A DNA stretch of 64,000 nt from Myxococcales bacterium (GTDB taxonomy: Bacteria > Myxococcota_A > Polyangia > Polyangiales > JAFGIB01), in contig JASFKR010000001.1 of assembly GCA_050118535.1 (NCBI GenBank), positions 20,277 through 84,276 of the forward strand, in the 5' to 3' direction. The position numbers were made by a program, and so were the translations under genes. This document shows positions 3,418 through 62,791 of the stretch, piece by piece (the first letter of the stretch is position 1; each line of letters begins with the position of its first letter). The notes beneath the pieces were generated by a model. That model made no database searches, was not told the origin of the DNA, and saw only the letters and a program-made list of their open reading frames with translations.

Positions 3418-5353
<1,936 letters not shown>

Positions 5354-5377
5354 GCGGACGACCGCTCACACGCAGGA

Positions 5378-5412
5378 CGCCGGGCTCCCCGCGGGGCCCG
5401 GCGTTTTTCTTT
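5378..5412 (+). terminator. rho-independent terminator after groEL
   Basis: Stem CGCCGGGC (5378-5385) pairs with GCCCGGCG (5396-5403), with inner CCCC/GGGG pairs. It is followed by TTTTTCTTT. Confidence 0.75.
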
Positions 5413-5436
5413 CCGTCTTCGCCTTCGACGGCGGGC

Positions 5437-6939
5437 TCAATCCAGCAACGCGAAGAGCGCGTCGAGTCGGTCCCGTGCGACGGGGCCGTCGTCCGCGCCG
5501 GAGCGCAGGGCTCGCACGGCGCCCTCGAGCGCCGCCAGGTGGCTGCGCGCGTGCTCGAGTGCCTCGGACAGCTCGCTGTGCTCGGCACGCATCCGGTCGA
5601 ATGCCTGATCGCGCTGCTCGGCGGCCGCCGCGCTCGTGCCCCGGGCCTCGCTGAGCTGCTGCTCGAGCCGCCGGATCCGGTCGTCGCGGGCGGCCACCTG
5701 CTCTTCGAGGGCCTCGATGGCGTCGATGTGCACGGGCACGCCGGGCTCCGTCGGATCCGACGCATCCTCCGTCGGCCCTCCGCTCCGCACCTGTGCCCGC
5801 ACGCTGTCGGCGATGGCTGCGAGCGTGGCGCGCGCCTCATGCAACGCCGCGCGTAGCTCCTGCACCTGCCGCCGCTGCTCGGCGGTGCCACGCTGGGCAG
5901 CGTCACGCTGAGCCTCCAGGGTCTCCTCCCGCCGACCGCGCGCGTCATCGGCCTCGCTCGCGGCCGCCCGCAGGCGCTCCCGCTCACCCCGGGTCTGGCT
6001 GAGCTCGGTCCGCAGCATCAGGACCTGCGCCTGCGCGCGCCCCCGCTCGTCCTCGAGCGCCCGACGCTTTTCCTGCTCGCGCGCGAGCAGCCGCTCGAGC
6101 TCACCGATGCGGTCGTGCAGCGAGCCGCGTTCGGAGGCCGCCGCGCCAAGCTCCGCCCTGGCGGCACCGAGCTCGTCGCCGCTACGCCGCGCCTGCCGCC
6201 TCGCCGCGTCCACGGCGGCGACCGCCGCGGCGTGAGCTCGCTCCGCTTCTTCGAGCCGGGCGCGTAGACCCGCCACCTCGCCGGCCAGCGCCTCGCCACG
6301 CGCGCGGCCCGAGTCCCACTCGGCCTGCTTGGCCGAGGCCCGCGCAATCTGCAGCTCGAGCTGCTCGCGCGCCTCGGCGACCTCCCGCCGACGGCCGAGG
6401 TTCTCTTCCCGCGCAGCCGAGAGGTCGTGCTCTGCCAGCAGCAGGCGCGCCTCGAGCATCTCGCGGGCTTCCTGCGCCTCGGCCAGCGCCGAGCGCAGCC
6501 CCCGGGCCGTTCCGCTCAGCCGCGCATGCTCGAAACTGTCGCCCTCGCGGCCGTCCCCCCGCGGCGCCTCGCGGGCCTCGGCCAGAAAGCCCATGGCCTC
6601 GTCCAGGTGCAGCGACACCTCGGCGCAGCGCGCCTCCGCTTCCAGCGCCCGGGACACGGCCGCGTCGCGCTCGGCGCGCAACGCTTGCTGCCCGTCGGCG
6701 GGGCCCTCCGGCCCGCTTGCGCCATCCGCCCCGGCGCCCCCGAGCTGGGCGAAGTGCGCCAGCGCGTCCCGCAGCACGCCGCGCAGATGCGTCAGCTCCG
6801 CCCGGGCCGCGCGCAGCTCGCGCGCCCGCTCCAGGAGTTGCAGCTCCAGCCGGTCCACATCCGCCAAGGGCGACTCGGCCGTCGTGGACGACGTCTGGGA
6901 TGACTGCTGGGGCGTTCCCTGGGTGCTCGGACCGGCCAT
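5437..6939 (-). CDS. Ala/Arg/Glu-rich coiled-coil protein, function unknown
   Basis: A 500 aa ORF with heptad-like, coiled-coil composition throughout (LERARELRAARAELTHL and similar). GC3 is high. Competing plus-strand ORFs look like GC shadows. Confidence 0.65.
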   Translation of the reverse strand: MAGPSTQGTPQQSSQTSSTTAESPLADVDRLELQLLERARELRAARAELTHLRGVLRDALAHFAQLGGAGADGASGPEGPADGQQALRAERDAAVSRALEAEARCAEVSLHLDEAMGFLAEAREAPRGDGREGDSFEHARLSGTARGLRSALAEAQEAREMLEARLLLAEHDLSAAREENLGRRREVAEAREQLELQIARASAKQAEWDSGRARGEALAGEVAGLRARLEEAERAHAAAVAAVDAARRQARRSGDELGAARAELGAAASERGSLHDRIGELERLLAREQEKRRALEDERGRAQAQVLMLRTELSQTRGERERLRAAASEADDARGRREETLEAQRDAAQRGTAEQRRQVQELRAALHEARATLAAIADSVRAQVRSGGPTEDASDPTEPGVPVHIDAIEALEEQVAARDDRIRRLEQQLSEARGTSAAAAEQRDQAFDRMRAEHSELSEALEHARSHLAALEGAVRALRSGADDGPVARDRLDALFALLD

Positions 6940-7008
6940 CTATCGGGCTCCGGGAGCGGCCGATTCTCCACTACTTTCGCCAGGCGCGCCAGCCCGCCGC
7001 GGGCCTGG

Positions 7009-10000
7009 TTGTGCGCGCTCCGACACGGCTCACGTGCTAGCTTCTCACCCGTGCCCCCCCCGACGCAGTCCACGGCGACGCGCATCGTCGCCGGATACGT
7101 GCGCAGCCTCCGCCGCCGGGCCTCGACGCTGTACGCGCTGCGGTCCCTGGCTGCGGCCGGCGGGGCCGGAGCGCTCGGCTTCGCGGCCCTCGCCGGGCTG
7201 TCGGGCCCCATCATCACGCCCGCCTATGCGGGCGGCAGCCTCGGGTCGCTCGCCGTGCTGGCCATCGGTGTGGGCGTGTGGATGCTGCGTCCCCTGTTGG
7301 GGCTGCGCGACCTGGGTAGCTGTCGCCTGATCGAGCGCATCGACGCCCCGCTGGCCTCGCGCGTGCGCAGCGCCCTGGAGATGTCGCATGGCGCGCCCGA
7401 GGGCGCCTCACAGGCGTTGATGACCGCGCACGCCAGCAGCGTCCGCGAGGCCCTCGCCAACGTGCCGCCGGCGCGGGTCCTGCCCCTGTCCACCCTGCGC
7501 CACCCGGCGGCGGTGGCCGGTACCCTGGCCCTCGCCGCGAGTGCCCTCGCCTTGCTCGGCGACGGCGGCCTGCGCGCCGGCGCCTACGCCCTGACCCACC
7601 CCGCCCGTATCCGTGATGATGGCGTCCGCGTCGCGCCGGTGCTGTCGGCGACGCGCGCCCGTCTCATCTACCCGAGCTACCTGGCACTGCCCCCCACCGA
7701 AGTCGAGGACGTGCGCAAGCTGGAGGTGCCGCGCGGGACCACCATCGAGATCAGCGTGACGCCCCGGCTGCCCAGCCGCGACGGTGTGCTGCAGGTCGGC
7801 GAAGCCTCCGTGCGCCTGAGAGCCGTGCCCGACGGCGAGCTCTTCGCTCGCTTCGTCGCCCGCGAGGACGCGGAGCTGCGTGTACGCATTCACAGCGACG
7901 ACGTCTGGTACCAGGACAGCCGGACGCGCAGCCTGCGCGCCGTCGCCGACCAGGCGCCGCAGGTGCGGCTGCTCGACCCTGCGGACGGCGCCATCGTCGA
8001 AGCCACCGCCCGCGTGCCGGTGCGGCTCGCGGCGACCGACGACCACGGCCTGTCGTCCATCGAGCTGGCCGTGCGCCTGCCCGATGGGCAGGAGCAGCGG
8101 CGCCGTGTGTGGTCCTCGGTCACCGGCGACGGTCCCCGGCGGGCCCTGGAGGACGGGACGCAAATCGTCCCCGCGGAGCTAGGTGCGCGCGAGGGCGACG
8201 TGTTGCTGTTGTGGATCGAGGCGCGCGACGCCGACGCGGTGGCCGGCCCCAACCTGGGCCTGTCGCGCGCCGTGACTTTGGAGGTGGCCTCCGACGCCCA
8301 GAAGCTCTCCATGCACATCCCGCGCCTGCGGGCCGCCCTCGATGGCGCCCTCGACGTGCTGGCCGACCGCCTCGAGTTCCCGCTGCCCCAGGCCGCCGGC
8401 CAGGCCCGGTTGCGCATGCAGGAATTGCACGATGTCGCCGGGCGCTGGCTCGACGATCTGGAGACGCTGGTGAAGGACGCGACTGTCGACGCGGAGCGTC
8501 TGCCCATCGACGTCGACCAGCTGCGCGGCATCGTCAAGCGCACCCGCCGCGAACTGCGGCGAGAGCGAGCCGTCTACCGCAGCGACGACGGCCCCGGCGA
8601 GCGACGGGTGGCGGTCGACGCACGCGTCGTCGAGGAGCACGAAAAGGACGTGCTGCTGCTCGCCGACACCCTCGCACAGACACTGGTGGACGAGGCCCGC
8701 GCACTGACCGACGAGCTGGCCCAGCTCAAGGAGGAGATCCGCGACCTGCTCGAACGCTTCAAGAACGAGGACAGCCCCGAGGCCAAGCGCGCGCTGCTCG
8801 CCGAGATCGCGAAGGCCCAGCGGCGCCTGCGTCAGCTCGCCGAGAGCCTCTCGCAGCTCTCCAAGCGGGTGCCCAGCGAGTTCATCAACCGCGAGGCCAT
8901 CCCCGAGGGGAACGCACGCAGCAGCGCCGAGGACCTCAAGAGCGCCATCGAGTCGGGGGACATGGACGCCGCGGAACGCGCGCTGCAGGCCCTGTCGGAG
9001 CAGATCGACGAGCTTGCCCAGCACATCGACAGCGGTGGCGCGCGTTTTCGCGAGGCGCGCTTCGGCGAGCGCGACCGCGCCATCGCGTCTGCCCGACGCC
9101 AGCTGGACATGCTGGCCGAGGAACAGGAGCGGCTCGTGGAACGCACGCGCGACGTGGTGCGGCGCGCGACCGATCGCGCCCAAGCCCAGGCGCGTCCCGA
9201 GGGCGCCATGCGCGGCATGCAACAGCTCGCGGAGCGAATCGAGCAGACCCTCGACGAGCTCGGCCGCGACACCGCGGGCAGCTACGAATCGCGAATGCTG
9301 GAGCGGGCGGGCGACCGCATGCGCGACGCCCGCGACGCGCTCAAGACCGGCGACATGGCCGAGGCCAGTCGCATGGCCTCGCGCGCCCAGGGCAGCCTGG
9401 ACCAGGCCGCCGCGAGCCTGGAGGCCTCCGCCCGCATGGGTCGTCGACGCGACGGACAGGCGCGGCAGCACGCCGAGGACGCGAGTCGCGCGGCCGACGA
9501 TTTGCGCAACCTGCAGCAGCAACTCGCCGAGATCACCCCCGGGCTGGGCGAACACGTCACCGAAGGCGAGCGGCGACAGCTCGCCGGTGACGCCCAGCCG
9601 CAGCGCGCGGCGCGCGACGCCGCGGAGTCGCTGGAGCGCAAGCTCGGAGAAGGCAGCGGCAAAGCGGACCCCCCCCTGTCCCCGGAGGGCGCCGAGTCGA
9701 TGCGCGAGGTGGAGCAGGCCATGCGTCGGGCGGAGCGCGCGTTGCAGGAAGGCGATCCGCAGCAGGCGGCGCTCGAGCAGCAGGACGCGGCGGAGCGCCT
9801 GCGCCGGGAGGAGGAACGGCTCGCCCGCAAACAGGAGCGCCGGGGCGGCGGCGGACAGGGCCAGGATCCGTCGCGCCCCGCCCGTGAAGGCGAAGGCGGC
9901 GACGGCCCCATGAACGGCGAGGTCGAGATCCCGGGCGCCGAGGAGTTCAGCGGCCCGGTGGCGCGCCGCCGGCGCTTGCTCGACGCCATGCGCGAGCCCG

Positions 10001-10056
10001 CTCCCTCGGGCTTCGAGGCGGCGGTGCAGCGCTACTACGAGGAGCTGTTGCGATGA
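7009..10056 (+). CDS. large membrane-anchored coiled-coil protein, first gene of the MoxR/Bat-like operon (family not recognised; start uncertain, TTG 7009 or GTG 7051)
   Basis: N-terminal hydrophobic segments (GALGFAALAGL, LAVLAIGVGVWML). The C-terminal half is long, charged and coiled-coil. Its stop overlaps the next start (ATGA at 10053-10056). Confidence 0.65.
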   Translation: MCALRHGSRASFSPVPPPTQSTATRIVAGYVRSLRRRASTLYALRSLAAAGGAGALGFAALAGLSGPIITPAYAGGSLGSLAVLAIGVGVWMLRPLLGLRDLGSCRLIERIDAPLASRVRSALEMSHGAPEGASQALMTAHASSVREALANVPPARVLPLSTLRHPAAVAGTLALAASALALLGDGGLRAGAYALTHPARIRDDGVRVAPVLSATRARLIYPSYLALPPTEVEDVRKLEVPRGTTIEISVTPRLPSRDGVLQVGEASVRLRAVPDGELFARFVAREDAELRVRIHSDDVWYQDSRTRSLRAVADQAPQVRLLDPADGAIVEATARVPVRLAATDDHGLSSIELAVRLPDGQEQRRRVWSSVTGDGPRRALEDGTQIVPAELGAREGDVLLLWIEARDADAVAGPNLGLSRAVTLEVASDAQKLSMHIPRLRAALDGALDVLADRLEFPLPQAAGQARLRMQELHDVAGRWLDDLETLVKDATVDAERLPIDVDQLRGIVKRTRRELRRERAVYRSDDGPGERRVAVDARVVEEHEKDVLLLADTLAQTLVDEARALTDELAQLKEEIRDLLERFKNEDSPEAKRALLAEIAKAQRRLRQLAESLSQLSKRVPSEFINREAIPEGNARSSAEDLKSAIESGDMDAAERALQALSEQIDELAQHIDSGGARFREARFGERDRAIASARRQLDMLAEEQERLVERTRDVVRRATDRAQAQARPEGAMRGMQQLAERIEQTLDELGRDTAGSYESRMLERAGDRMRDARDALKTGDMAEASRMASRAQGSLDQAAASLEASARMGRRRDGQARQHAEDASRAADDLRNLQQQLAEITPGLGEHVTEGERRQLAGDAQPQRAARDAAESLERKLGEGSGKADPPLSPEGAESMREVEQAMRRAERALQEGDPQQAALEQQDAAERLRREEERLARKQERRGGGGQGQDPSRPAREGEGGDGPMNGEVEIPGAEEFSGPVARRRRLLDAMREPAPSGFEAAVQRYYEELLR

Positions 10057-11648
10057 GTCGGAAACGACGACGACCGCTCACGCTGCTCGCGACGCTCGCA
10101 CTGTGCGCGCCCACTGCGCACCTGCGCGCCGCGCCGGAACCGCCGTCCGCCGCGATTCGCCCGGCTGCAAACCGGCTGGACGAGCTGGCAGAGGCCATCA
10201 CCTCGCTTCGCCTCGATCGCGCCGAGCGGCTGCTGGCGGAGCTGCCCACGGGCGATGCCGACAGGCCCACCGCTCTGTACCAGCAGGCGCGCCTCCTGTT
10301 TCACCGGGGGCTTTACGCGGACGCCGTGGCGGTGGGAGAGCGCGCCGTGCAGGGCGCCAGCGGCCGGCAGCGGGAGCGCTATGCCGAGCTGCTCGAGCTG
10401 ATGCGCGCCAGCCAGCAGGTGACCGCCGACTACACGCGACTCGCGTCGGACGACGGGCGCTACGTCGTGCTCCACCCTCCGGGCAAGGACGAGGTGCTCG
10501 CCCCCTACGCCCTGGAGGTGCTGCGCAGTGCCGACCAGGCACTGACCGACATCTTCGGCGTGAAGCTCCCTGGCCCGCTGCGGCTGGAGATCTACCCGGG
10601 ACCCGAGGTGCTCGCGCGCGTGTCCACGCTCACCGTCGAGCAGATCGAGACGACCGGCACGGTCGCCCTGAGCAAGTGGAACCGATTGATGGTGACCAGC
10701 CCCAAGGCACTGGTACGTGGCTACCCCTGGGCGGACACGGTCACCCACGAGCTGGTGCACATGATGCTCTCCTACGTCAGCGGCGAACGGGCGCCGGTGT
10801 GGCTGCAGGAGGGCACGGCCAAGCTCTTCGAGCGCGCCTGGCGAAAGCACGGAGCGGGACTGCTGCTCGACCCGGCGTCCCGGCAGATGCTGGGCGAGGC
10901 GGCCCGTGACGGCAAGCTGCTGACCTTCGAGCAGATGCACCCCTCCATCGCCATGCTTCCCTCGGAGGACGACGCGGCACTGGCCTTTGCCCAGGTGTCC
11001 ACCTTCATGGAGCAATACGTGGAGCGCCACGGCCAGCAGGCATTGCGCGACGCCTTCGCGCGCATCGAGGCAGGTACCGACGCGCGCGACGCCCTGGCCG
11101 AGGCCGCGGGCGAGCCGTTCGCCCGAATGGAGCGCGAGTGGAAGACCACCCTGCCGAAGATCGAGGGCGGTGACCTGCATCGGCTCAAGCGGCGCTTCAA
11201 GGTGGGCGACGGCCCCGCGGACGAGACCGAGGAGGTCGAGGAGAGCGAGGCGCGGAGATTCATGCGCCTGGGCGACCTGCTCTGGGACCGGGGTCGGATC
11301 GGGGCCGCGGCGCGCGAGTACGAGAAGGCGAGCTCGGCCGATCCGCTCGATCCGATCGTCGCGGCCCGCTGGGGCCGCGCGGCGCTGCAGGCCGGGGATC
11401 CGGCCGGCGCCGTCCGGGCCCTCGCACCACAGCGCGAGCGCTACCCCGGCCACGCCCCCACCCACGCCGTGCTCGGGGCGGCCTACGTGGAGCTGGGCAG
11501 GCTGGCCGACGCCCGCGGCCCCCTGCGCGAGGCCATCTGGATCAACCCCTTCGACCCGGCGCCGCACTGCGGCCTGGCCCGCGCCACCGACGACGCCTCC
11601 GAGCGCCAGCGAGAGGCCCGGGCGTGCCAGCGGCTGAGCGGGCGGTGA
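10053..11648 (+). CDS. secreted peptidase-MA-like HExxH protein with C-terminal TPR repeats
   Basis: Signal peptide MSRKRRRPLTLLATLALCAP. Motif HELVHMM...WLQEGTAKLFE (HExxH plus a downstream E-G-x-A). The C-terminus is TPR-like (AAREYEKASSADPLDP...). Confidence 0.7.
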   Translation: MSRKRRRPLTLLATLALCAPTAHLRAAPEPPSAAIRPAANRLDELAEAITSLRLDRAERLLAELPTGDADRPTALYQQARLLFHRGLYADAVAVGERAVQGASGRQRERYAELLELMRASQQVTADYTRLASDDGRYVVLHPPGKDEVLAPYALEVLRSADQALTDIFGVKLPGPLRLEIYPGPEVLARVSTLTVEQIETTGTVALSKWNRLMVTSPKALVRGYPWADTVTHELVHMMLSYVSGERAPVWLQEGTAKLFERAWRKHGAGLLLDPASRQMLGEAARDGKLLTFEQMHPSIAMLPSEDDAALAFAQVSTFMEQYVERHGQQALRDAFARIEAGTDARDALAEAAGEPFARMEREWKTTLPKIEGGDLHRLKRRFKVGDGPADETEEVEESEARRFMRLGDLLWDRGRIGAAAREYEKASSADPLDPIVAARWGRAALQAGDPAGAVRALAPQRERYPGHAPTHAVLGAAYVELGRLADARGPLREAIWINPFDPAPHCGLARATDDASERQREARACQRLSGR

Positions 11649-11699
11649 CCCCCGCCCGCGCGCCGGCAACCATTGGGTTGGCACGCCGGCGCGCGGGGG
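11649..11699 (+). other. GC-rich stem-loop in the 100 bp spacer before moxR
   Basis: GCGCGCCGGC (about 11658-11667) pairs with GCCGGCGCGC (about 11685-11694), flanked by CCCCC/GGGGG. The loop is aaccattgggttggcac. No T-run follows. Confidence 0.4.
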
Positions 11700-11748
11700 A
11701 GTAGGCTCCCCCTGCGCGCTGGCCGAAAACCGAGCCAACGCGAAACCC

Positions 11749-12755
<1,007 letters not shown>

Positions 12756-12759
<4 letters not shown>

Positions 12760-13700
12760 GCCCAGCCGCCCCCGCGCAGGTGGCGGTGCTCGACCAGGAG
12801 ATCGTCCAGCGCATCGCCACCCTGCGGTTGCGCGCGCGCCGCGCCGTCGAGGGGGTGCGCTCCGGCATCCACCGCAGCCCGCACCGGGGCGCGAGCGTGA
12901 TCTTTGCCGAGCACCGCGACTACCGCCCGGGCGACGACCTGCGCCTGCTGGACTGGCGCGCCTATGCGCGCAGTGATCGCTACACGATCAAGCACTTCGA
13001 GCAGGAGACGCACCTGCGCGCGCACCTGCTCTTCGACGTCTCGGGGTCCATGCGCTACGGCGGGGAGACCGCCCCGGGCAGCGGCACCCACCCTGGCGCC
13101 CTGGGAAAGCTCGACTACGCGGCGACCCTGCTGTCGGCGATGGCCTTCATCCTGCTCGGCCAGGCGGACGCCGTGGGCGTGCATACCCTGGGCGAGGGCG
13201 TGATCGACAGCCTGCAGCCCAGAGCCCGCCCGGGGCAGCTCGACGCGATCCTGCGCGCCCTGGCCGCGCCCCCCGACAGCGACGGCCCCACCCACTTGCA
13301 CGCAGCCCTGGAACAGTGCGCCGAACGCGCCGGCCGCAGGGCGCTGATCGTCCTCGCCAGCGACCTGCTCGACTTCGAGCCGAGCGCGCTCGAACCGCTC
13401 ACGCGGATGCACGCGGCGGGCCACGACGTCATCGTCTTCCACGTGCTGCATCCCGACGAGCTCGACTTCCCCTTCGAGGCGCGCTCGCGCTTCGTGGATC
13501 CGGAGAGCGACGAGATGCTGGACACCGATCCGGAGGCCGTCCGCGAAGCCTACATGGATCGGATGGGACACTTCTTGATCGACAGCCGCAAGCGCTGCAC
13601 CGCCGCGGGCGCGCGCTACGCCCTGGCGCGCACCGACGTGCCCGTACAGCAGGTGATCAGCGCCGTCCTCTCGGGCGGCACGGTGCGCACATGGGCCTAG
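12756..13700 (+). CDS. DUF58 domain protein (MoxR partner)
   Basis: GTGA start/stop overlap with moxR. Motif HRSPHRGASVIFAEHRDYRPGDDLRLLDWRAYARSDRYTIKHFEQE is the DUF58 signature. Confidence 0.85.
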
Positions 13701-15703
13701 AGACACCCCTGGCGCTGCTGGGTTTGCTGGCGGCCGGCTTGCCACTTCTGGTGCACCGGATCCGGCGGCGGGACCTGGTGCCCATCCCGCTGCCCACCTT
13801 CGCGCTGCTGCACCAGGCCGAGGCGCGCAAGCGGCGCAGCCGCGGCCTCACCGACCTGCTCCTTCTCATCCTTCGCGTCGCCATCATCACCCTGGCATGC
13901 CTGGGCGCCGCCGCGCCCTACGTCACGGCGCGCCTGAGCTTCGGCGACGGCAGCCTCGCCAGCGTGGCGATCGTGATCGACGACTCCATGTCGATGATGC
14001 GCAGGGAGGGCAGCAGCACGTTGCTTTCGATGGCCGTGGAGAAGGCGCGCGAGGCCATCGACTCACTCCCGGAAGGCTCGGAGGTGGCGCTGGTGGCGGC
14101 CTCACGACGGCCGCGCGTGTTGCTGCGCCGGACCGACACCCTGTCGCTGGCGCAGGTCGAGCTCGACGGCATCGACGACGAGTCCATGCGCGGCACGGAC
14201 CTGAAGGGCGCGGTGGAGTTGGCGCTGGGCCAGCTTTCCGCAGCGCAACACCAGAACCGCCGCATGCTCATCATCAGCGACCTGGCCGCCCACGGCGGCC
14301 TCGATCCTCGAGACCTGGCCCTGGAGGGCGTCGAGGTGACCGTCGAGCGCGTCGGCAGCCCGGAGCCTCCGGTCAACGTGCACTTCGTGTCCGCCAGCGC
14401 CTTGCCTGACCCGACCACGCCGGGTCAGACATCGCTGGCCTTCGAGCTGGCGGCCGACGGCGAGACGCCGGCACCGGTGCCGGTGCGGGTGCGCAGCGGT
14501 GACCGGGAGGTCGCCCGCGCCGAGGTGACCCTGGTCGACGGGCGGGGTCGCACCACGGTGCACGTGCCCACGCCCGGGCGCGAGCAGGACCCCGCGGCCC
14601 TGCTCGAGATCGAAAGCCACGATGCGCTCGCCGAGGACAACGTGATGGGGGTGCTGCTGCGGCGTGCTGACGCGCTGCAGGTGATGTTCGTCAACGGCGA
14701 CCCGCACCCCGCCAGCGACGCCGACGAGCTCTACTACGCCCAGGCCGCGCTGCGCCTGGCGCCCACCTCGACCGGCGCCCTGTCTCTGCGCACGGTCGAT
14801 GCCAGCGTTCTGGGCAAGTACGACCTCTCGGGCACCGACGTGGTGGTGATGGCGAATGCGCCGGCACCTCGACCGGGGGTGGCGGCACGGCTGAAGGACT
14901 TCGTCCGTGACGGCGGCGGGTTGGTCATCAGCGCCGGCGACCGCGTCGACCCCCGCGCCTACAACGCCGCGCTGGGACCGGTGCTGCCGTGCCGGCTGCT
15001 TTCGCGAGGCGGCGGCGCGGCACTCGACATCGACTCCGGCAGCGGCGGGCCGCTGATGCCGGGTGGTCCCAGCGGGCTGTCGAAGGTGACCGTCGCGCGT
15101 CGGCTCATGCTGGAATGCGAGCACGGCGCCCAGCTCACCTTCGACGACGGCGCCCCGGCCGTGGCCGTGGGCGAAGCCGGACGCGGGCAGGCGGCGATCC
15201 TGGCGACCTCCCTCGACGACGACTGGAGCGACCTGCCCCTGCGGCCGGGCTACCTCCCGCTGCTGGTCAACCTCTTGCGACACACCTCGCGCACGCACGA
15301 TCTCCAGAGCGGACCGGTGCAACCCGGCGCCACGGTGCGGATCCCGGTGCCGCCGGGTGCCGCCCGCCTCGAGGTGGTGACCCCCGCAGGTCTCCGTCGA
15401 CGCTACGACGACCTGGACGACGAGAGCCGCGTGGAATTCTCTGACACGCGCGCCGCGGGCCCCTATCGCGTGATGGTGTCGAGCGCCGGTGGCGCCCTGG
15501 TCGACGCCCCGCGCGGCGCCTTCGTCGTGGAAGCCCCCCGTGACGAGAGCGACCTGACGCCCGACCCGGAGGCTCGCCAGCTGGTCTCGGGGGAACGGGG
15601 CGGCGGCGGCGCCACCGTGCACCGCTCATTGGCTTCGCTGATCTTCCTGCTGTTCGGGGTGGTGGTGATCGGCGAGGGGCTGGTCCGCCTGCGCCGGGGC
15701 TGA
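13691..15703 (+). CDS. BatA-like membrane protein: aerotolerance-regulator N-terminal domain + vWA domain + C-terminal anchor
   Basis: Start ATG 13691 (MGLETPLALLGLLAAGLPLLVHRIRRR), overlapping the DUF58 stop. MIDAS-like VAIVIDDSMSM. C-terminal TM segment LIFLLFGVVVIGEGL. Confidence 0.8.
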   Translation: MGLETPLALLGLLAAGLPLLVHRIRRRDLVPIPLPTFALLHQAEARKRRSRGLTDLLLLILRVAIITLACLGAAAPYVTARLSFGDGSLASVAIVIDDSMSMMRREGSSTLLSMAVEKAREAIDSLPEGSEVALVAASRRPRVLLRRTDTLSLAQVELDGIDDESMRGTDLKGAVELALGQLSAAQHQNRRMLIISDLAAHGGLDPRDLALEGVEVTVERVGSPEPPVNVHFVSASALPDPTTPGQTSLAFELAADGETPAPVPVRVRSGDREVARAEVTLVDGRGRTTVHVPTPGREQDPAALLEIESHDALAEDNVMGVLLRRADALQVMFVNGDPHPASDADELYYAQAALRLAPTSTGALSLRTVDASVLGKYDLSGTDVVVMANAPAPRPGVAARLKDFVRDGGGLVISAGDRVDPRAYNAALGPVLPCRLLSRGGGAALDIDSGSGGPLMPGGPSGLSKVTVARRLMLECEHGAQLTFDDGAPAVAVGEAGRGQAAILATSLDDDWSDLPLRPGYLPLLVNLLRHTSRTHDLQSGPVQPGATVRIPVPPGAARLEVVTPAGLRRRYDDLDDESRVEFSDTRAAGPYRVMVSSAGGALVDAPRGAFVVEAPRDESDLTPDPEARQLVSGERGGGGATVHRSLASLIFLLFGVVVIGEGLVRLRRG

Positions 15704-54615: not shown

Positions 54616-55071
54616 TCACTCCTCCTCGCCGAACACGCGCACGCGATCCGCGAGACTCAGTCCCAGAGCCTCGAGGATTTTGCGCTTTGTATCCATGCGA
54701 CACCCCAGGCCCTTTTCGACGCGATCAATCGTCAACACCGAGAGCCCCGCGCGGCGTGCCAACTCGGCTTTGGACATCATGCGCTCGATCCGGACCTCCC
54801 GGACCCGATTCGCATGTGGGGGTTTCTTGGGCTTGCCCTTCGAACCCTGACCGGACTTCGTTCTACTGGCCCCACCGGACGACGAGGTATCACGAGACGA
54901 GGCACTCGAACCCTTCGCCCGTCCCGCAGCCCGCTTTGCGGGCTTCTTCTTGTCCGCCTTGCCCTCGACTTTGTCGACGTTCTCGGACTTGGACGCACCC
55001 TTGTCTTTGGAAGCGTCCGCCGACACCGCCGTCACATCCATGGAAGTGGAAGACTTTTGGTTCTGTTCCAT
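54616..55071 (-). CDS. XRE-family helix-turn-helix protein with Lys/Ser-rich disordered N-terminus
   Basis: C-terminal VREVRIERMMSKAELARRAGLSVLTIDRVEKG is an HTH_3-like motif. Its stop lies 9 nt upstream of the pilM start on the same strand. Confidence 0.8.
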   Translation of the reverse strand: MEQNQKSSTSMDVTAVSADASKDKGASKSENVDKVEGKADKKKPAKRAAGRAKGSSASSRDTSSSGGASRTKSGQGSKGKPKKPPHANRVREVRIERMMSKAELARRAGLSVLTIDRVEKGLGCRMDTKRKILEALGLSLADRVRVFGEEE

Positions 55072-55125
55072 GGTCGCGAGACCCGCCCGTGCACCCTCCG
55101 ATCAGGATACCCGGGCATGTGGAGC

Positions 55126-55155
55126 ATGTTAGGCCCCCGGCGAGGCGAGCGTCAA
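55126..55155 (-). promoter_or_regulatory. candidate sigma70-like promoter of the HTH-pilMNOPQ operon with AT-rich upstream tract
   Basis: Minus strand: TTGACG (55150-55155), an 18 nt spacer, TAACAT (55126-55131), about 50 nt upstream of the HTH ATG. The AT-rich tract at 55156-55215 is unusual for this genome. Confidence 0.35.
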
Positions 55156-55324
55156 GCAAGTTTGGGTAATTTTTCACAAAGTTAAGCGTCAATTATGCCT
55201 AAATTAGATGTCTCTCAGTGCAGCCAGCCGATCTCGTTCACCGGCTGTTGCCACGCGGATTCTCTCGATTGTCAAGGAACGACCAACGCCGACTACCATG
55301 GTGGCGGAAGCCGCTGGGGAGATC

Positions 55325-55353
55325 AAAAAAGGCGCCCCTACTGGGAGGGGCGC
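55325..55353 (-). terminator. rho-independent terminator
   Basis: Minus strand: GCGCCCCT-cccagt-AGGGGCGC(C), followed by TTTTTTG. Confidence 0.8.
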
Positions 55354-55430
55354 ACCGCCCTGGCCGGCGCTCCGGACCGGACCGTGCGCTCGTTTCGGCG
55401 GGCGCACACGAGGTGCAGCCGGCCTGTGGC

Positions 55431-55673
55431 TCAGCGCCTGCTCGATACCCCGTGGTCGCAAATAAGCACGCGCGATACGCCGCCATCTGCCGGGCGCTCG
55501 CAGTAGCCCATGATGCACAGGCGCAGCACCCCGCACTCCCCCGCATCGCTGGCGTTGCACTCGGCATCCCGCTCACACGGCTCGCCCCGCCCCGTCGGCA
55601 CTTCAGGGTCGGGTGCGCAAGCCGACGCCCCGACCACCACACACGCCACTCGCAACCAGCTCGACCAACCCAT
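55431..55673 (-). CDS. small Cys-rich lipoprotein (80 aa)
   Basis: ATG 55671-55673 is preceded by GGAGAT. MGWSSWLRVACVVVGASAC is a signal plus lipobox. Six further Cys (CERDAECNASDAGECGVLRLCIMGYC). High GC3. Confidence 0.55.
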   Translation of the reverse strand: MGWSSWLRVACVVVGASACAPDPEVPTGRGEPCERDAECNASDAGECGVLRLCIMGYCERPADGGVSRVLICDHGVSSRR

Positions 55674-55693
55674 CCTATCTCCGTCTTGGAGCA

Positions 55694-60802
<5,109 letters not shown>

Positions 60803-60865
60803 GGAGGCAAGCTACCATCCGGCCCATTCCTGCACAACCTGACACATCGGGCCAGGGGCACAAGA

Positions 60866-60881
60866 TGGCACACTAGCGGCA
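60866..60881 (+). promoter_or_regulatory. sigma54-like -24/-12 element, divergent from the EBP-fusion gene
   Basis: TGGCAC (60866-60871), then GC at 60879-60880, giving the canonical GG-N10-GC spacing (TGGCACactagcgGCA). The -12 TT is not conserved. It lies inside three GGCACA direct repeats. Confidence 0.3.
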
Positions 60882-60891
60882 CACCTCACGT

Positions 60892-61176
60892 CGACGCCAG
60901 CTGGCGAACCCAGCCGTGCTCGTAGTCGTAGTCGTGGTCAAGAGAAGTGGATGGCGTGGGAGGGAGCGCGACCTTGCGTGGGGGTGGGTGGACGCGCGCC
61001 TTCCGCCGCGCGTCCGCGCTACCGCGCGGTGGGATTCGCTGCGCTCGGATGACGGGGTGCGCGGGTCCTGGGCGCGGAGTCGGACGCGGTCGCGGACTCG
61101 GAGTCGGTCACGGACTCGGAATCGGGATCGGAATCGGTCCCGGCGATCAAATTCCCGCCCCATGGGGCGGGTTTTA
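60892..61176 (+). ncRNA. hypothetical structured transcript (candidate sRNA or leader) between the sigma54-like element and a palindromic terminator
   Basis: Inferred only. There is no convincing ORF. Palindrome CGCCAGCTGGCG (60895-60906). 9 bp hairpin 60990-61015. Palindrome ACCGCGCGGT (61022-61031). Period-6 tract 61076-61147. Terminator-like hairpin 61154-61171 plus TTTT. Confidence 0.2.
61154..61176 (+). terminator. 18 bp perfect palindrome plus T-run (terminator-like, possibly bidirectional)
   Basis: CCCGCCCCATGGGGCGGG (61154-61171) followed by TTTTAC. On the minus strand it is followed by AATTTGATC. Confidence 0.5.
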
Positions 61177-61321
61177 CAAACCAAAAACTACCAAATTTGA
61201 TATTTTATAAATCAAAAGGACCGCGGCGCCCGCGACCACCACCGACCCCACCGCCACAGAGACGGGCGCGGCGGGCGCGGGCGCCGCGAGCGACCCCACG
61301 TCGGGCACCGCTCCGATCCCC

Positions 61322-61567
61322 ATGGACGACGCCACGACGATGACGGTCGACGGCGACGACACGCCGATCGAGCGCCTCTGGCTCGACAAGAACTCCCCCG
61401 AAATCGTCGGCCTGCGCAACTACTTCGGCAACACCGCCTTCCTCTACGGCGCCCCGCTGGAGTTGAGCACCATCTACCGCGTGAAGATCGTCGGCACCTA
61501 CGCCGGCGGTGCGCTCGACGTGGAGCGGACCTTCACCACGGGCTCCATGCGGCCCTGGGGCGCCTGA
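61322..61567 (+). CDS. small hypothetical protein (81 aa) or 3' remnant of a longer gene
   Basis: Very high GC3 from 61322 to the stop. The frame stays open upstream to 61211, translating as a Thr/Pro/Ala/Gly-rich linker with no ATG/GTG/TTG. It is separated by a single TAA (61208-61210) from an in-frame upstream ORF. Confidence 0.45.
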   Translation: MDDATTMTVDGDDTPIERLWLDKNSPEIVGLRNYFGNTAFLYGAPLELSTIYRVKIVGTYAGGALDVERTFTTGSMRPWGA

Positions 61568-61591
61568 GGCAGCCCCGGGGTCAACCCAAGG

Positions 61592-62791
61592 TCAACCCGC
61601 GATCAGCCAGCCCTCGTCGCTGATCGCGGCCTCGATCTCCTCGATGTGATCGAAACCGCGCGTCTCCAGCACCAGCTCCACCGCCGTCAGCCCCGGATCG
61701 GTGCGGGGCGCGAAGCGGTCGTGGTGCACCTCCAGCACGTTGGCCTGGCACCGCGCGGTGGTGGCAAGCAGCGACGCGAGCGCCCCCGGCACGTCCGGGA
61801 TCAGCACCCGCACGCGCATGCTGCGCCCGCTCTTGACCAGGCCCCGCTCGATGATCCGAGCCAGCACGTTCACGTCGATATTGCCGCCCGTCAGCAGCAT
61901 CACCACGCGCTTGCCCGCGATCGGCAGTTGCCCCTGCAGCGCCGCAGCCAGGGGTGCGGCGCCCGCCCCCTCTGCCACCGTCTTCTCCTGCTCCAGCAAC
62001 AGCAGGATGGCCTCGGCGATCTCCTCCTCGTCGACCAGGGCGATTCCGTCGAGCAGCCGGCCGTGCTCGAGGGTGCGCGCCGAGACGCTGCGCACGGCGA
62101 TTCCGTCGGCGAGCGTGCGCCCGGGTCCCACCGCCACCGGCTCGCCCGCCGCGAGCCCGCGCTGCATGGATGGCAACACGCTCGGCTCCACCCCGAAGAC
62201 CTTCACCTCCGGGCGCAGACCCTTGATCGCGACCGCCACCCCTCCCGCCAGGCCGCCGCCGCCGACGGGCACGAGCACCGCCTCCACGTCGGGCACCTGC
62301 TCGAGCACCTCCAGCGCCACCGTGCCCTGCCCCGCCATCACCGCGTCGTCATCAAAGGGGTGCACCTGGGTCAGCCTCCGCGCCTCGGCCAGGCGCCGGG
62401 CCTCGGCCGCCGCGTCGTCGTAGCTCTCGCCGTGCAGCACGACCTCGGCCCCGTGGCGGCGCGTGGCGCTGACCTTGATCAGTGGCGTGCCCACCGGCAT
62501 CACGATGGTCGTCGCCACACCCTCGCGCAGGGCCGCGAACGCCAGCCCCTGGGCGTGGTTGCCGGCGCTGGCGGCGATGACGCCGCGCGCCCGCTGCTCG
62601 TCGTCCAGCAAGAGCAACTTGTTGAGCGCGCCGCGCTCCTTGAAGGAGCCGGTCATCTGCAGGTTCTCGAGCTTGAGGTGCAGCTCGCAGCCGGTGAGCT
62701 CCGAGAGCCGCTGCGAGCGCGGACACGGCGAGTAGTAGATCCGCTCCTTCACCCGCTCGCGGGCGGCCTGCACGTCGGCGACGGTGATCAT
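61592..62791 (-). CDS. ilvA: threonine ammonia-lyase (threonine dehydratase), short form with one C-terminal ACT-like domain
   Basis: PLP lysine motif LQMTGSFKERGA, SAGNHAQG, GGGGL loop. 399 aa. Confidence 0.88.
   Translation of the reverse strand: MITVADVQAARERVKERIYYSPCPRSQRLSELTGCELHLKLENLQMTGSFKERGALNKLLLLDDEQRARGVIAASAGNHAQGLAFAALREGVATTIVMPVGTPLIKVSATRRHGAEVVLHGESYDDAAAEARRLAEARRLTQVHPFDDDAVMAGQGTVALEVLEQVPDVEAVLVPVGGGGLAGGVAVAIKGLRPEVKVFGVEPSVLPSMQRGLAAGEPVAVGPGRTLADGIAVRSVSARTLEHGRLLDGIALVDEEEIAEAILLLLEQEKTVAEGAGAAPLAAALQGQLPIAGKRVVMLLTGGNIDVNVLARIIERGLVKSGRSMRVRVLIPDVPGALASLLATTARCQANVLEVHHDRFAPRTDPGLTAVELVLETRGFDHIEEIEAAISDEGWLIAG

Follow-up and report, generated by a model that had tools for sequence, protein, structure and literature searches.

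The stretch analyzed here (the window) comprises 64,000 nucleotides of a Myxococcales bacterium (GenBank assembly GCA_050118535.1, contig JASFKR010000001.1), and the element in question is its gap of about 520 bp at 60803–61321, which lies between the gene for a kinase/sigma54-activator fusion protein (the kinase-activator gene) and a small open reading frame (ORF) of 81 codons. The gap is best explained, with a probability of roughly 0.65, as two unrelated parts, namely the conserved promoter/operator that serves the kinase-activator gene and the remains of a lipoprotein gene that are specific to this lineage. The first part is conserved in relatives, the second is absent from them, and the adjoining ORF is truncated. 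In this explanation, 60803–60884 would be the native minus-strand control region of the kinase-activator gene, and about 60885–61591 would have decayed from a plus-strand gene whose product was a lipoprotein with a CAP domain and an immunoglobulin (Ig)-like domain. The original prediction had read the motifs of the gap as the promoter-like element, hairpins and terminator of a plus-strand noncoding or small-peptide transcript of about 285 nt or, alternatively, as a decayed gene remnant.

Comparison With Syntenic Relatives

Four relatives (L094, L096, L097, and L016) that all keep the gene order kinase, threonine dehydratase, kinase-activator were compared with the window. The gap from the dehydratase stop codon to the activator start codon is 789 bp in the window, 183 bp in L094 (74–78% nucleotide identity to the window), 146 bp in L096 (79% protein identity in the dehydratase), 157 bp in L097 (73% protein identity in the dehydratase), and 189 bp in L016 (about 65% protein identity). 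By blastn and global alignment, window 60760–60884 matches L094 8043–7936 and window 61606–61688 matches L094 7802–7720; between the aligned blocks lie 721 bp in the window (60885–61605) versus 133 bp in L094, with nothing alignable. A segment of about 700 bp, from the end of a conserved repeat array to the dehydratase stop codon (about 60885–61591), thus has no counterpart in the four relatives. This segment contains every hairpin as well as the period-6 tract, the AT-rich island, and the 81-codon ORF, and because 60885–61605 cannot be aligned with the relatives, everything from the 12 bp palindrome onward, the small ORF included, is lineage-specific DNA.

Two contigs of the same strain, L012 and L013, have exactly the window's sequence across the region. 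Because the sequence of the segment is the same in three independent assemblies of the source strain, it is not an assembly artefact. By parsimony, the segment would be an insertion specific to this lineage. A transposon or an insertion of the miniature inverted-repeat transposable element type is not indicated: the segment ends have neither terminal inverted repeats nor a target duplication. Blastn and tblastx of the region against the fetched loci and the window itself gave chance-level matches only. At the right edge of the segment, a tandem direct repeat, GGTCAACCC-AA-GGTCAACCC (61579–61598), is present, the second copy of which holds the dehydratase stop codon (TCA on the plus strand, 61592–61594); it may be a junction scar. 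In the L094 assembly (ENA ERZ25039536 contig_91402, 5000–14000), the dehydratase and kinase-activator calls are fragmented and the DNA aligns with the window end to end; this assembly probably carries frameshift errors, and its spacer length should still be reliable.

The Small ORF as a Lipoprotein Gene Fragment

The 81-codon ORF (P0001, from a Myxococcales metagenome-assembled genome; 61322–61567, plus strand) is a truncated 3′ fragment of a gene for a lipoprotein with CAP and Ig-like domains. A word-indexed search returned only the ORF itself and one homolog, P0002, which aligns only over its residues 76–150 with 65–68% identity (phmmer E = 1.7e-23). A profile search found 204 relatives, in which a domain of about 145 residues is C-terminal in proteins of 300–480 amino acids (aa). 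Full-length members consist of a signal peptide, a lipobox, a long low-complexity Gly/Ser/Ala/Thr linker, and the CAP (SCP/PR-1) domain in addition to this C-terminal domain, and the family hidden Markov model (HMM) built from 41 of them matches the window only with its positions 272–341 of 342 (61331–61543, E = 2.7e-14). The AlphaFold model of the domain of the closest homolog (predicted local distance difference test score of 90) is an eight-strand Ig-like sandwich; among solved structures, its fold is closest to CopC and to the LdtMt2 Ig-like domains. Alignment of the window ORF to this domain begins only at the end of strand four, so that strands one to three and most of strand four precede the aligned portion. 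The C-terminal domain of these CAP lipoproteins (P0003–P0152) has no Pfam model, and no member of the family is encoded elsewhere in the window or in 98 fetched loci.

The sequence in front of the ORF is in keeping with a lost 5′ portion. No ribosome-binding site is evident before the ATG at 61322, which is the first start codon in a frame that is open from 61211. The start-less stretch of this frame at 61217–61321 (plus strand) reads RTAAPATTTDPTATETGAAGAGAASDPTSGTAPIP, which resembles a Thr/Ala/Pro/Gly linker, and its GC content at third codon positions (GC3) of 0.94 and codon log-odds of +0.2 to +0.4 mark it as a probable former part of the coding sequence of the lipoprotein gene that was truncated.

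The same interval carries, on the minus strand (61323–61174), a JGI-called ORF for a hydrophobic product of 49 aa, MGIGAVPDVGSLAAPAPAAPVSVAVGSVVVAGAAVLLIYKISNLVVFGL, which shares its starting CCATGG with the small ORF, runs antisense to the linker-like stretch, and ends inside the AT-rich island. Its reading as a real protein draws on its being called in both L012 and L013, on a positive codon score in its frame at 61220–61400, and on a plausible transmembrane stretch as read from the sequence. The codon score is a shadow, because third-codon positions are shared with the plus-strand frame; moreover, the last 15 codons are AT-rich, unlike genes here (GC3 about 0.9), no Shine–Dalgarno sequence lies upstream, and the ORF is absent from the relatives. 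It is probably a shadow-frame artefact, and a genuine protein deserves hardly any credence.

Probable Promoter and Presumed Operator of the Kinase-Activator Gene

The sequence at 60803–60884 is conserved upstream of the orthologous kinase-activator gene in all four syntenic relatives. On the minus strand, it contains a −35 element TTGTGC (60837–60832) and a −10 element TAGCTT (60814–60809) that are separated by a 17 bp spacer and together look like a sigma70-type promoter of the kinase-activator gene (60809–60837). A regular-expression search combined with alignment found TTGTG(C/T)-N17-TA(G/A)(C/G)NY at 6–7 nt before ATG or GTG in five of five loci (the window and the four relatives), and in the more distant ortholog of L014, TTGTGC-N17-TATCTT-N7-ATG was read by eye. 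In L096, a GTG downstream of the called start is the likely true start of the gene. Because the −10 element of the window is only 6 nt from the ATG, the kinase-activator mRNA is probably leaderless, with the start of transcription placed by the position of these elements. A generic sigma70 promoter scan called no promoter here; the conserved one surfaced only through the relatives.

Six phased repeats, which resemble TGTGCC when read on the minus strand (GGCACA on the plus strand), extend over and upstream of the −35 element (60821–60883; starts at 60821, 60831, 60841, 60857, 60867, and 60878). On the plus strand, the copies read GGCCCA, TGCACA, GACACA, and then GGCACA three times, and their spacings of 10, 10, 16, 10, and 11 nt correspond to helical phasing of about 10–11 bp. 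Six occurrences of GGCACA with at most one mismatch were observed at 60821–60883 against 0.35 expected. The position and orientation of the array are kept in the four relatives (five-way alignment with the window), and a TGTGCC-like motif is also found in L014 and L017. The array is presumed to be an operator or activator-binding array of the kinase-activator gene, to which a regulator would bind. The three GGCACA repeats that had been described as promoter-like for a plus-strand RNA (60857, 60867, and 60878) are indeed conserved; since the conserved array has six phased copies, they are its distal half and belong to the regulatory sequence of the opposite-strand gene.

Linker-Like Sequences and the AT-Rich Island

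Within the segment, a codon log-odds scan indicated two coding-like frames on the plus strand, +0 weakly at 61010–61160 and +2 at 61220–61567. The weaker signal coincides with a tract of period 6/18, which Tandem Repeats Finder (TRF) placed at 61073–61137. In the +0 frame, 61053–61151 reads RGARVLGAESDAVADSESVTDSESGSESVPAIK (also given as ESDAVADSESVTDSESGSESVPAIK), an acidic Ser/Asp/Glu linker-like sequence with codon log-odds of +0.1 to +0.33 bits per codon and a GC3 of 0.85 versus 0.67 and 0.55 in the other plus-strand frames (gene mean 0.90, standard deviation 0.07). The tract is probably former linker-coding sequence. An in-frame TGA stands at 61050, and no convincing signal peptide was found, even after the two frames had been joined by removal of 65 bp. 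One signal-peptide-like candidate, RYRAVGFAALG followed by TGA (+0 frame, 61017–61052), was rejected: it resembles the N-termini of the lipoprotein family, but it needs reversal of a nonsense codon, has a GC3 of only 0.70, and lacks statistical support, and no claim is made for it. An inversion suggested by the inverted-repeat pairs I1 and I2, which relate the period-6 tract to the linker, was likewise rejected, the pairs being not collinear and their similarity that of low-complexity sequence.

Between the two coding-like stretches lies an AT-rich piece of 59–65 bp (CCCGCCCCATGGGGCGGG...TTTTATAA), bracketed by direct repeats of ATCAAA (61146–61151 and 61211–61216) that are 65 bp apart and enclose both an 18 bp palindrome and the AT-rich island (61172–61218, about 20% GC in 70% GC sequence). 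If 65 bp are removed, the period-6 tract (+0 frame) and the small ORF (+2 frame) are fused in phase, and the bracketed piece may have arisen by a small insertion that duplicated a 6 bp target. The evidence is suggestive only, because a 6 bp repeat in AT-rich DNA and an in-phase junction, which has a 1-in-3 chance, can both be fortuitous; the piece has these direct repeats and lacks inverted termini. The generic scan detected no sigma70 consensus on either strand of the island, and exact-pattern scans of a viral contig collection for the palindrome and the island gave zero matches.

On this basis, the following origin is proposed. Of the lipoprotein gene, only the last ~70 codons of the Ig-like domain would be left, as the 81-codon ORF. 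Former linker-coding sequence would be represented by the Thr/Ala/Pro-rich stretch and probably also by the period-6 tract with its acidic reading, and the periodicities of 6, 9, and 18 nt would stem from codon repeats. The AT-rich piece of about 60 bp with its GC-rich palindrome would interrupt the former linker sequence.

Terminator-Like Sites

Outward-facing sites with a hairpin and a T-run flank the AT-rich island and may now serve as terminators. On the plus strand, the 18 bp perfect palindrome CCCGCCCCATGGGGCGGG (61154–61171) is followed by TTTT (61154–61175 including the T-run); its local fold has −16.2 kcal/mol, with a 7 bp GC stem and a CATG loop, and it was not called by the terminator scan because the run has only four T. 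On the minus strand, the scan reported a terminator-like site at 61209–61237, a GGTCGCGG-GCG-CCGCGGTC stem followed by CTTTTGATTT (two overlapping calls versus 0.6 expected). The minus-strand terminator would keep the transcript of the threonine dehydratase gene apart from the promoter of the kinase-activator gene.

The inserted segment may thereby have been co-opted as a transcriptional insulator, in which 61237–61209 would end the dehydratase transcript, the palindrome would stop antisense transcription, and the kinase-activator gene would rely on its own promoter only. Such a role would be compatible with the composite explanation as a secondary function. The calls of the minus-strand sites fit it, two hairpins with T-runs pointing into an AT-rich spacer form the classic convergent-terminator layout, and the short spacers of the relatives showed no hairpin with a T-run on inspection by eye. 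The terminators are predicted ones, the minus-strand stem has two G–T pairs and lies within coding-like sequence, so that it may be fortuitous, and the dehydratase transcript would need a 3′ untranslated region containing about 380 nt antisense to the small ORF. An insulator function is therefore rather unlikely.

Abundance of the Motifs

All motifs listed in the original prediction were recovered by exact search, and one of them, the palindrome ACCGCGCGGT, stands at 61021–61030 and not, as had been given, at 61022–61031. Besides the features described above, they comprise the 12 bp palindrome CGCCAGCTGGCG (60895–60906), the (GTAGTC)2-GTGGTC tract GTAGTCGTAGTCGTGGTC (60922–60939), a 9 bp perfect stem with an 8 nt loop, GGACGCGCG-N8-CGCGCGTCC (60990–61015), and TTTGAT-N9-ATCAAA (61196–61216). 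In the window, which has 70% GC, perfect stems of at least 9 bp occur twice in these 519 bp versus 10 times in the remaining 63.5 kb, and two stems of at least 8 bp were reached by 1% of dinucleotide shuffles of the region. The palindrome at 61154–61171 is one of three perfect palindromes of 18 bp in the 64 kb, and of the four AT-rich islands in the window, this one is the most extreme (minimum 18% GC). The description of the region as highly structured is justified in these respects and for the GGCACA array, all of which exceed chance, but not for the shorter palindromes, which are commonplace (94 of 10 bp and 23 of 12 bp in the window), or for the (GTAGTC)n tract, with a TRF score of only 33.

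Weight of the Composite Explanation

Several observations weigh against the composite explanation. A remnant search of all six frames of 60701–61650, by tblastn with 152 family proteins and with the full-length family HMM, found nothing of the rest of the lipoprotein (signal peptide, CAP domain, and first half of the Ig-like domain). The stretch at 60885–61050, which holds the best hairpin and is G-rich on the plus strand (GC skew +0.2 to +0.35), has no coding-like frame and no recognizable homology, and the explanation does not account for it. The antisense shadow frame at 61217–61321 scores equal to the sense frame. For the period-6 tract, a minus-strand frame (TDSDPDSESVTDSES) is nearly as coding-like, with a GC3 of 0.80, so that the coding signal may lie on either strand. 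No inverted or direct repeat of at least 7 bp links 60870–60960 to 61520–61612. Hairpins are enriched, and the plus-strand fold of 60890–61180 is somewhat more stable than that of shuffled sequences (z = −2.37; 4 of 200 shuffles as good), neither of which a pure junk reading predicts. Finally, the choice between insertion and loss rests on parsimony because the nearest relatives are distant (about 75–78% nucleotide identity and 65–79% protein identity) in a poorly sampled lineage.

This last point bears on the alternative that the segment is ancestral, a decaying resident gene lost independently in the relatives. The distance of the relatives, the spacers of which are mutually unalignable in their non-repeat parts, is in its favor. 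That four loci at different distances all have 146–189 bp would, under this alternative, demand several independent near-complete deletions, which makes it quite improbable. The composite explanation, with an insertion in this lineage, is preferred. The suggestion of a decayed gene remnant is favored for the part that adjoins the ORF, which is a 3′ lipoprotein fragment, with coding-like sequence at 61217–61321 and weakly at 61053–61151, but not for 60885–61050.

Proposed Noncoding RNA

A rival explanation is a plus-strand noncoding RNA of about 285 nt that would start from a sigma54-like element at 60866–60881, would perhaps be driven by the adjacent activator, and would end at 61154–61176. 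The elements do stand in the proposed order, and the second and third GGCACA copies form TGGCACactagCGGCA (60866–60881, plus strand), in which TGGCAC-N5-CGGCA has the −24/−12 spacing of sigma54 promoters (GG-N10-GC). The hairpin with TTTT at 61154–61175, the enrichment of perfect stems, and the stability of the plus-strand fold, which is modest (z = −1.63 on the minus strand), likewise speak for an RNA. A precedent is the small RNA (sRNA) Pxr, which is driven by sigma54 beside an activator gene (PMC5568312).

The distribution of the sequence is against it. The whole body of the proposed RNA, from promoter through hairpins to terminator, is missing in the four syntenic relatives, as are each of the hairpins, the period-6 tract, the palindrome, and the AT-rich island (four of four), so that the expected conservation of the hairpins fails because no relative contains the sequence at all; the only copies, in L012 and L013, are identical to it. 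The supposed promoter repeats are part of the conserved array of the opposite gene, and the equivalent copies in the relatives are 9, 10, or 16 nt apart, for which reason the sigma54 spacing is not conserved and is unfit elsewhere. The one correctly spaced element follows a pattern of chance frequency (2 occurrences of the relaxed sigma54 pattern in the window versus 1.8 expected), and the conserved T residues are missing from its −12 element (CGGCA). The T-run is short and uncalled, as described above, half of the proposed RNA has a codon-like periodicity, and an activator site overlapping its own target promoter would be atypical of enhancer-binding proteins.

Covariance models gave no support. 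Rfam 15 at E up to 10 over 60300–61900 returned noise only (snaR-A, snoRNAs, and P9), far below threshold, and no match for the region was found in the whole window at the gathering threshold. These scans contained no match to Pxr, although the presence of a Pxr model in Rfam 15 was not checked. A scan for tRNA and tmRNA genes found none. A discrete sRNA in this region is accordingly very doubtful, and the 285 nt transcript of the original prediction is, by the same evidence, highly improbable.

A variant would reconcile an sRNA with the absence from relatives: a young, lineage-only sRNA born from the debris of the inserted lipoprotein gene, ending at the 61154–61176 palindrome and switched on by the adjacent kinase-activator. 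The insertion junction would have turned the resident TGGCAC array into a sigma54-type promoter (60866–60881). If true, it would exemplify how an sRNA can arise out of the remains of a pseudogene, but it is barely credible.

Flanking Genes and Distribution of Orthologs

The kinase-activator gene (55694–60802, minus strand; start codon at 60800–60802, both from the ORF list) encodes a product of 1702 aa in which Pfam recognizes a Ser/Thr kinase, AAA_16/STAND, TPR, GAF, a sigma54-interaction AAA+ domain, and HTH_8. This kinase/STAND/TPR/GAF/sigma54 fusion is an unusual protein family. Orthologs with 45–66% identity occur in Sandaracinaceae, Polyangiales, and Myxococcales metagenome-assembled genomes (the four syntenic relatives, L014, L017, L001, and L002). 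A scan of a genome collection with the protein yielded only orthologs about 52–55% identical (L001 and L002); L001 has no DNA upstream of its ortholog, and the dehydratase neighbor is not kept in L002.

The conserved right-hand flank is the threonine dehydratase gene (PALP by Pfam; 61592–62791, minus strand), which is labelled threonine dehydratase or threonine ammonia-lyase in its sources, and beyond it lies a further Ser/Thr kinase gene. The 81-codon ORF stands between the kinase-activator and dehydratase genes in an orientation opposite to both. In L014 (8637–9824) and L017 (11118–12305), loci of 45%-identity orthologs, the dehydratase gene is downstream of and convergent with the kinase-activator gene, and the linkage of the two genes is kept despite the different order.

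The gap had been called the longest stretch without a credible ORF. It has no coding-like frame at 60800–61010, but in a crude scan of codon usage it belongs to the second-longest low-coding interval (630 bp) of the window. The longest (54961–55830, 870 bp) adjoins the kinase-activator gene on its downstream side and contains an AT-rich island (55148–55223) with two copies of AAGCGTCAA and a JGI-called ORF of 80 aa (55431–55673) that belongs to no known family.

Implications

The region itself probably holds no biology of wide interest. The most useful by-product of the analysis is the definition of a compact conserved promoter/operator for an unusual family of ~1700 aa kinase/STAND/TPR/GAF/sigma54-activators in myxobacteria of the Sandaracinaceae and Polyangiales type, which is a starting point for understanding how the kinase-activator gene is regulated. 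For genomes of 70% GC, the region indicates that dense palindromes, hairpins, and short-period tracts in gaps may be leftovers of linker-coding sequence and insertion junctions rather than an RNA gene, and that comparison with syntenic relatives quickly tells the two apart.

Comparison With Known Systems

The conserved part of the gap shares with leaderless sigma70-type promoters that have direct-repeat operators the hexamers spaced by 17 bp, a start codon 6–7 nt after the −10 element, and repeats phased at about 10–11 bp. It differs from typical sigma70 promoters in its hexamers, TTGTGC and TAGCTT, which are far from the Escherichia coli consensus.

The original prediction placed the pxr gene of Myxococcus xanthus next to an NtrC-like activator gene, which is right as to adjacency only; the region here is arranged differently. 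The 108 nt pxr follows nla19 on the downstream side, with an NADH dehydrogenase gene beyond it, and is transcribed from a sigma54 promoter (PMC5568312); it is conserved and has three stem-loops (PMC5568312; PMC5684412). Pxr of M. xanthus and its relatives shares with the region here the adjoining sigma54-activator gene, an upstream motif of the TGGCAC type, and predicted folds with multiple hairpins. The candidate here would be about 285 nt long, is upstream of and divergent from the activator gene, has the threonine dehydratase gene on its other flank, and is absent from the relatives.

With CAP and Ig-like lipoproteins, the fragment in the window shares the last 70 residues, including the YRVK..G and WTFTTG motifs, and the acidic linker that follows the lipobox in these proteins resembles the +0 reading of the period-6 tract. 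The fragment lacks their signal peptide, lipobox, and CAP domain as well as the first half of their Ig-like sandwich.

The segment resembles intergenic pseudogene remnants in that only a 3′ end is matched, no ribosome-binding site is present, the start-less sequence upstream is coding-like, and orthologous sites lack it. It differs from them in that the remaining gene is not recognizable by homology and the fragment is well conserved (68% identity to P0002, GC3 of 0.98), which would be explained either by a recent truncation or by retention of the fragment for some reason.

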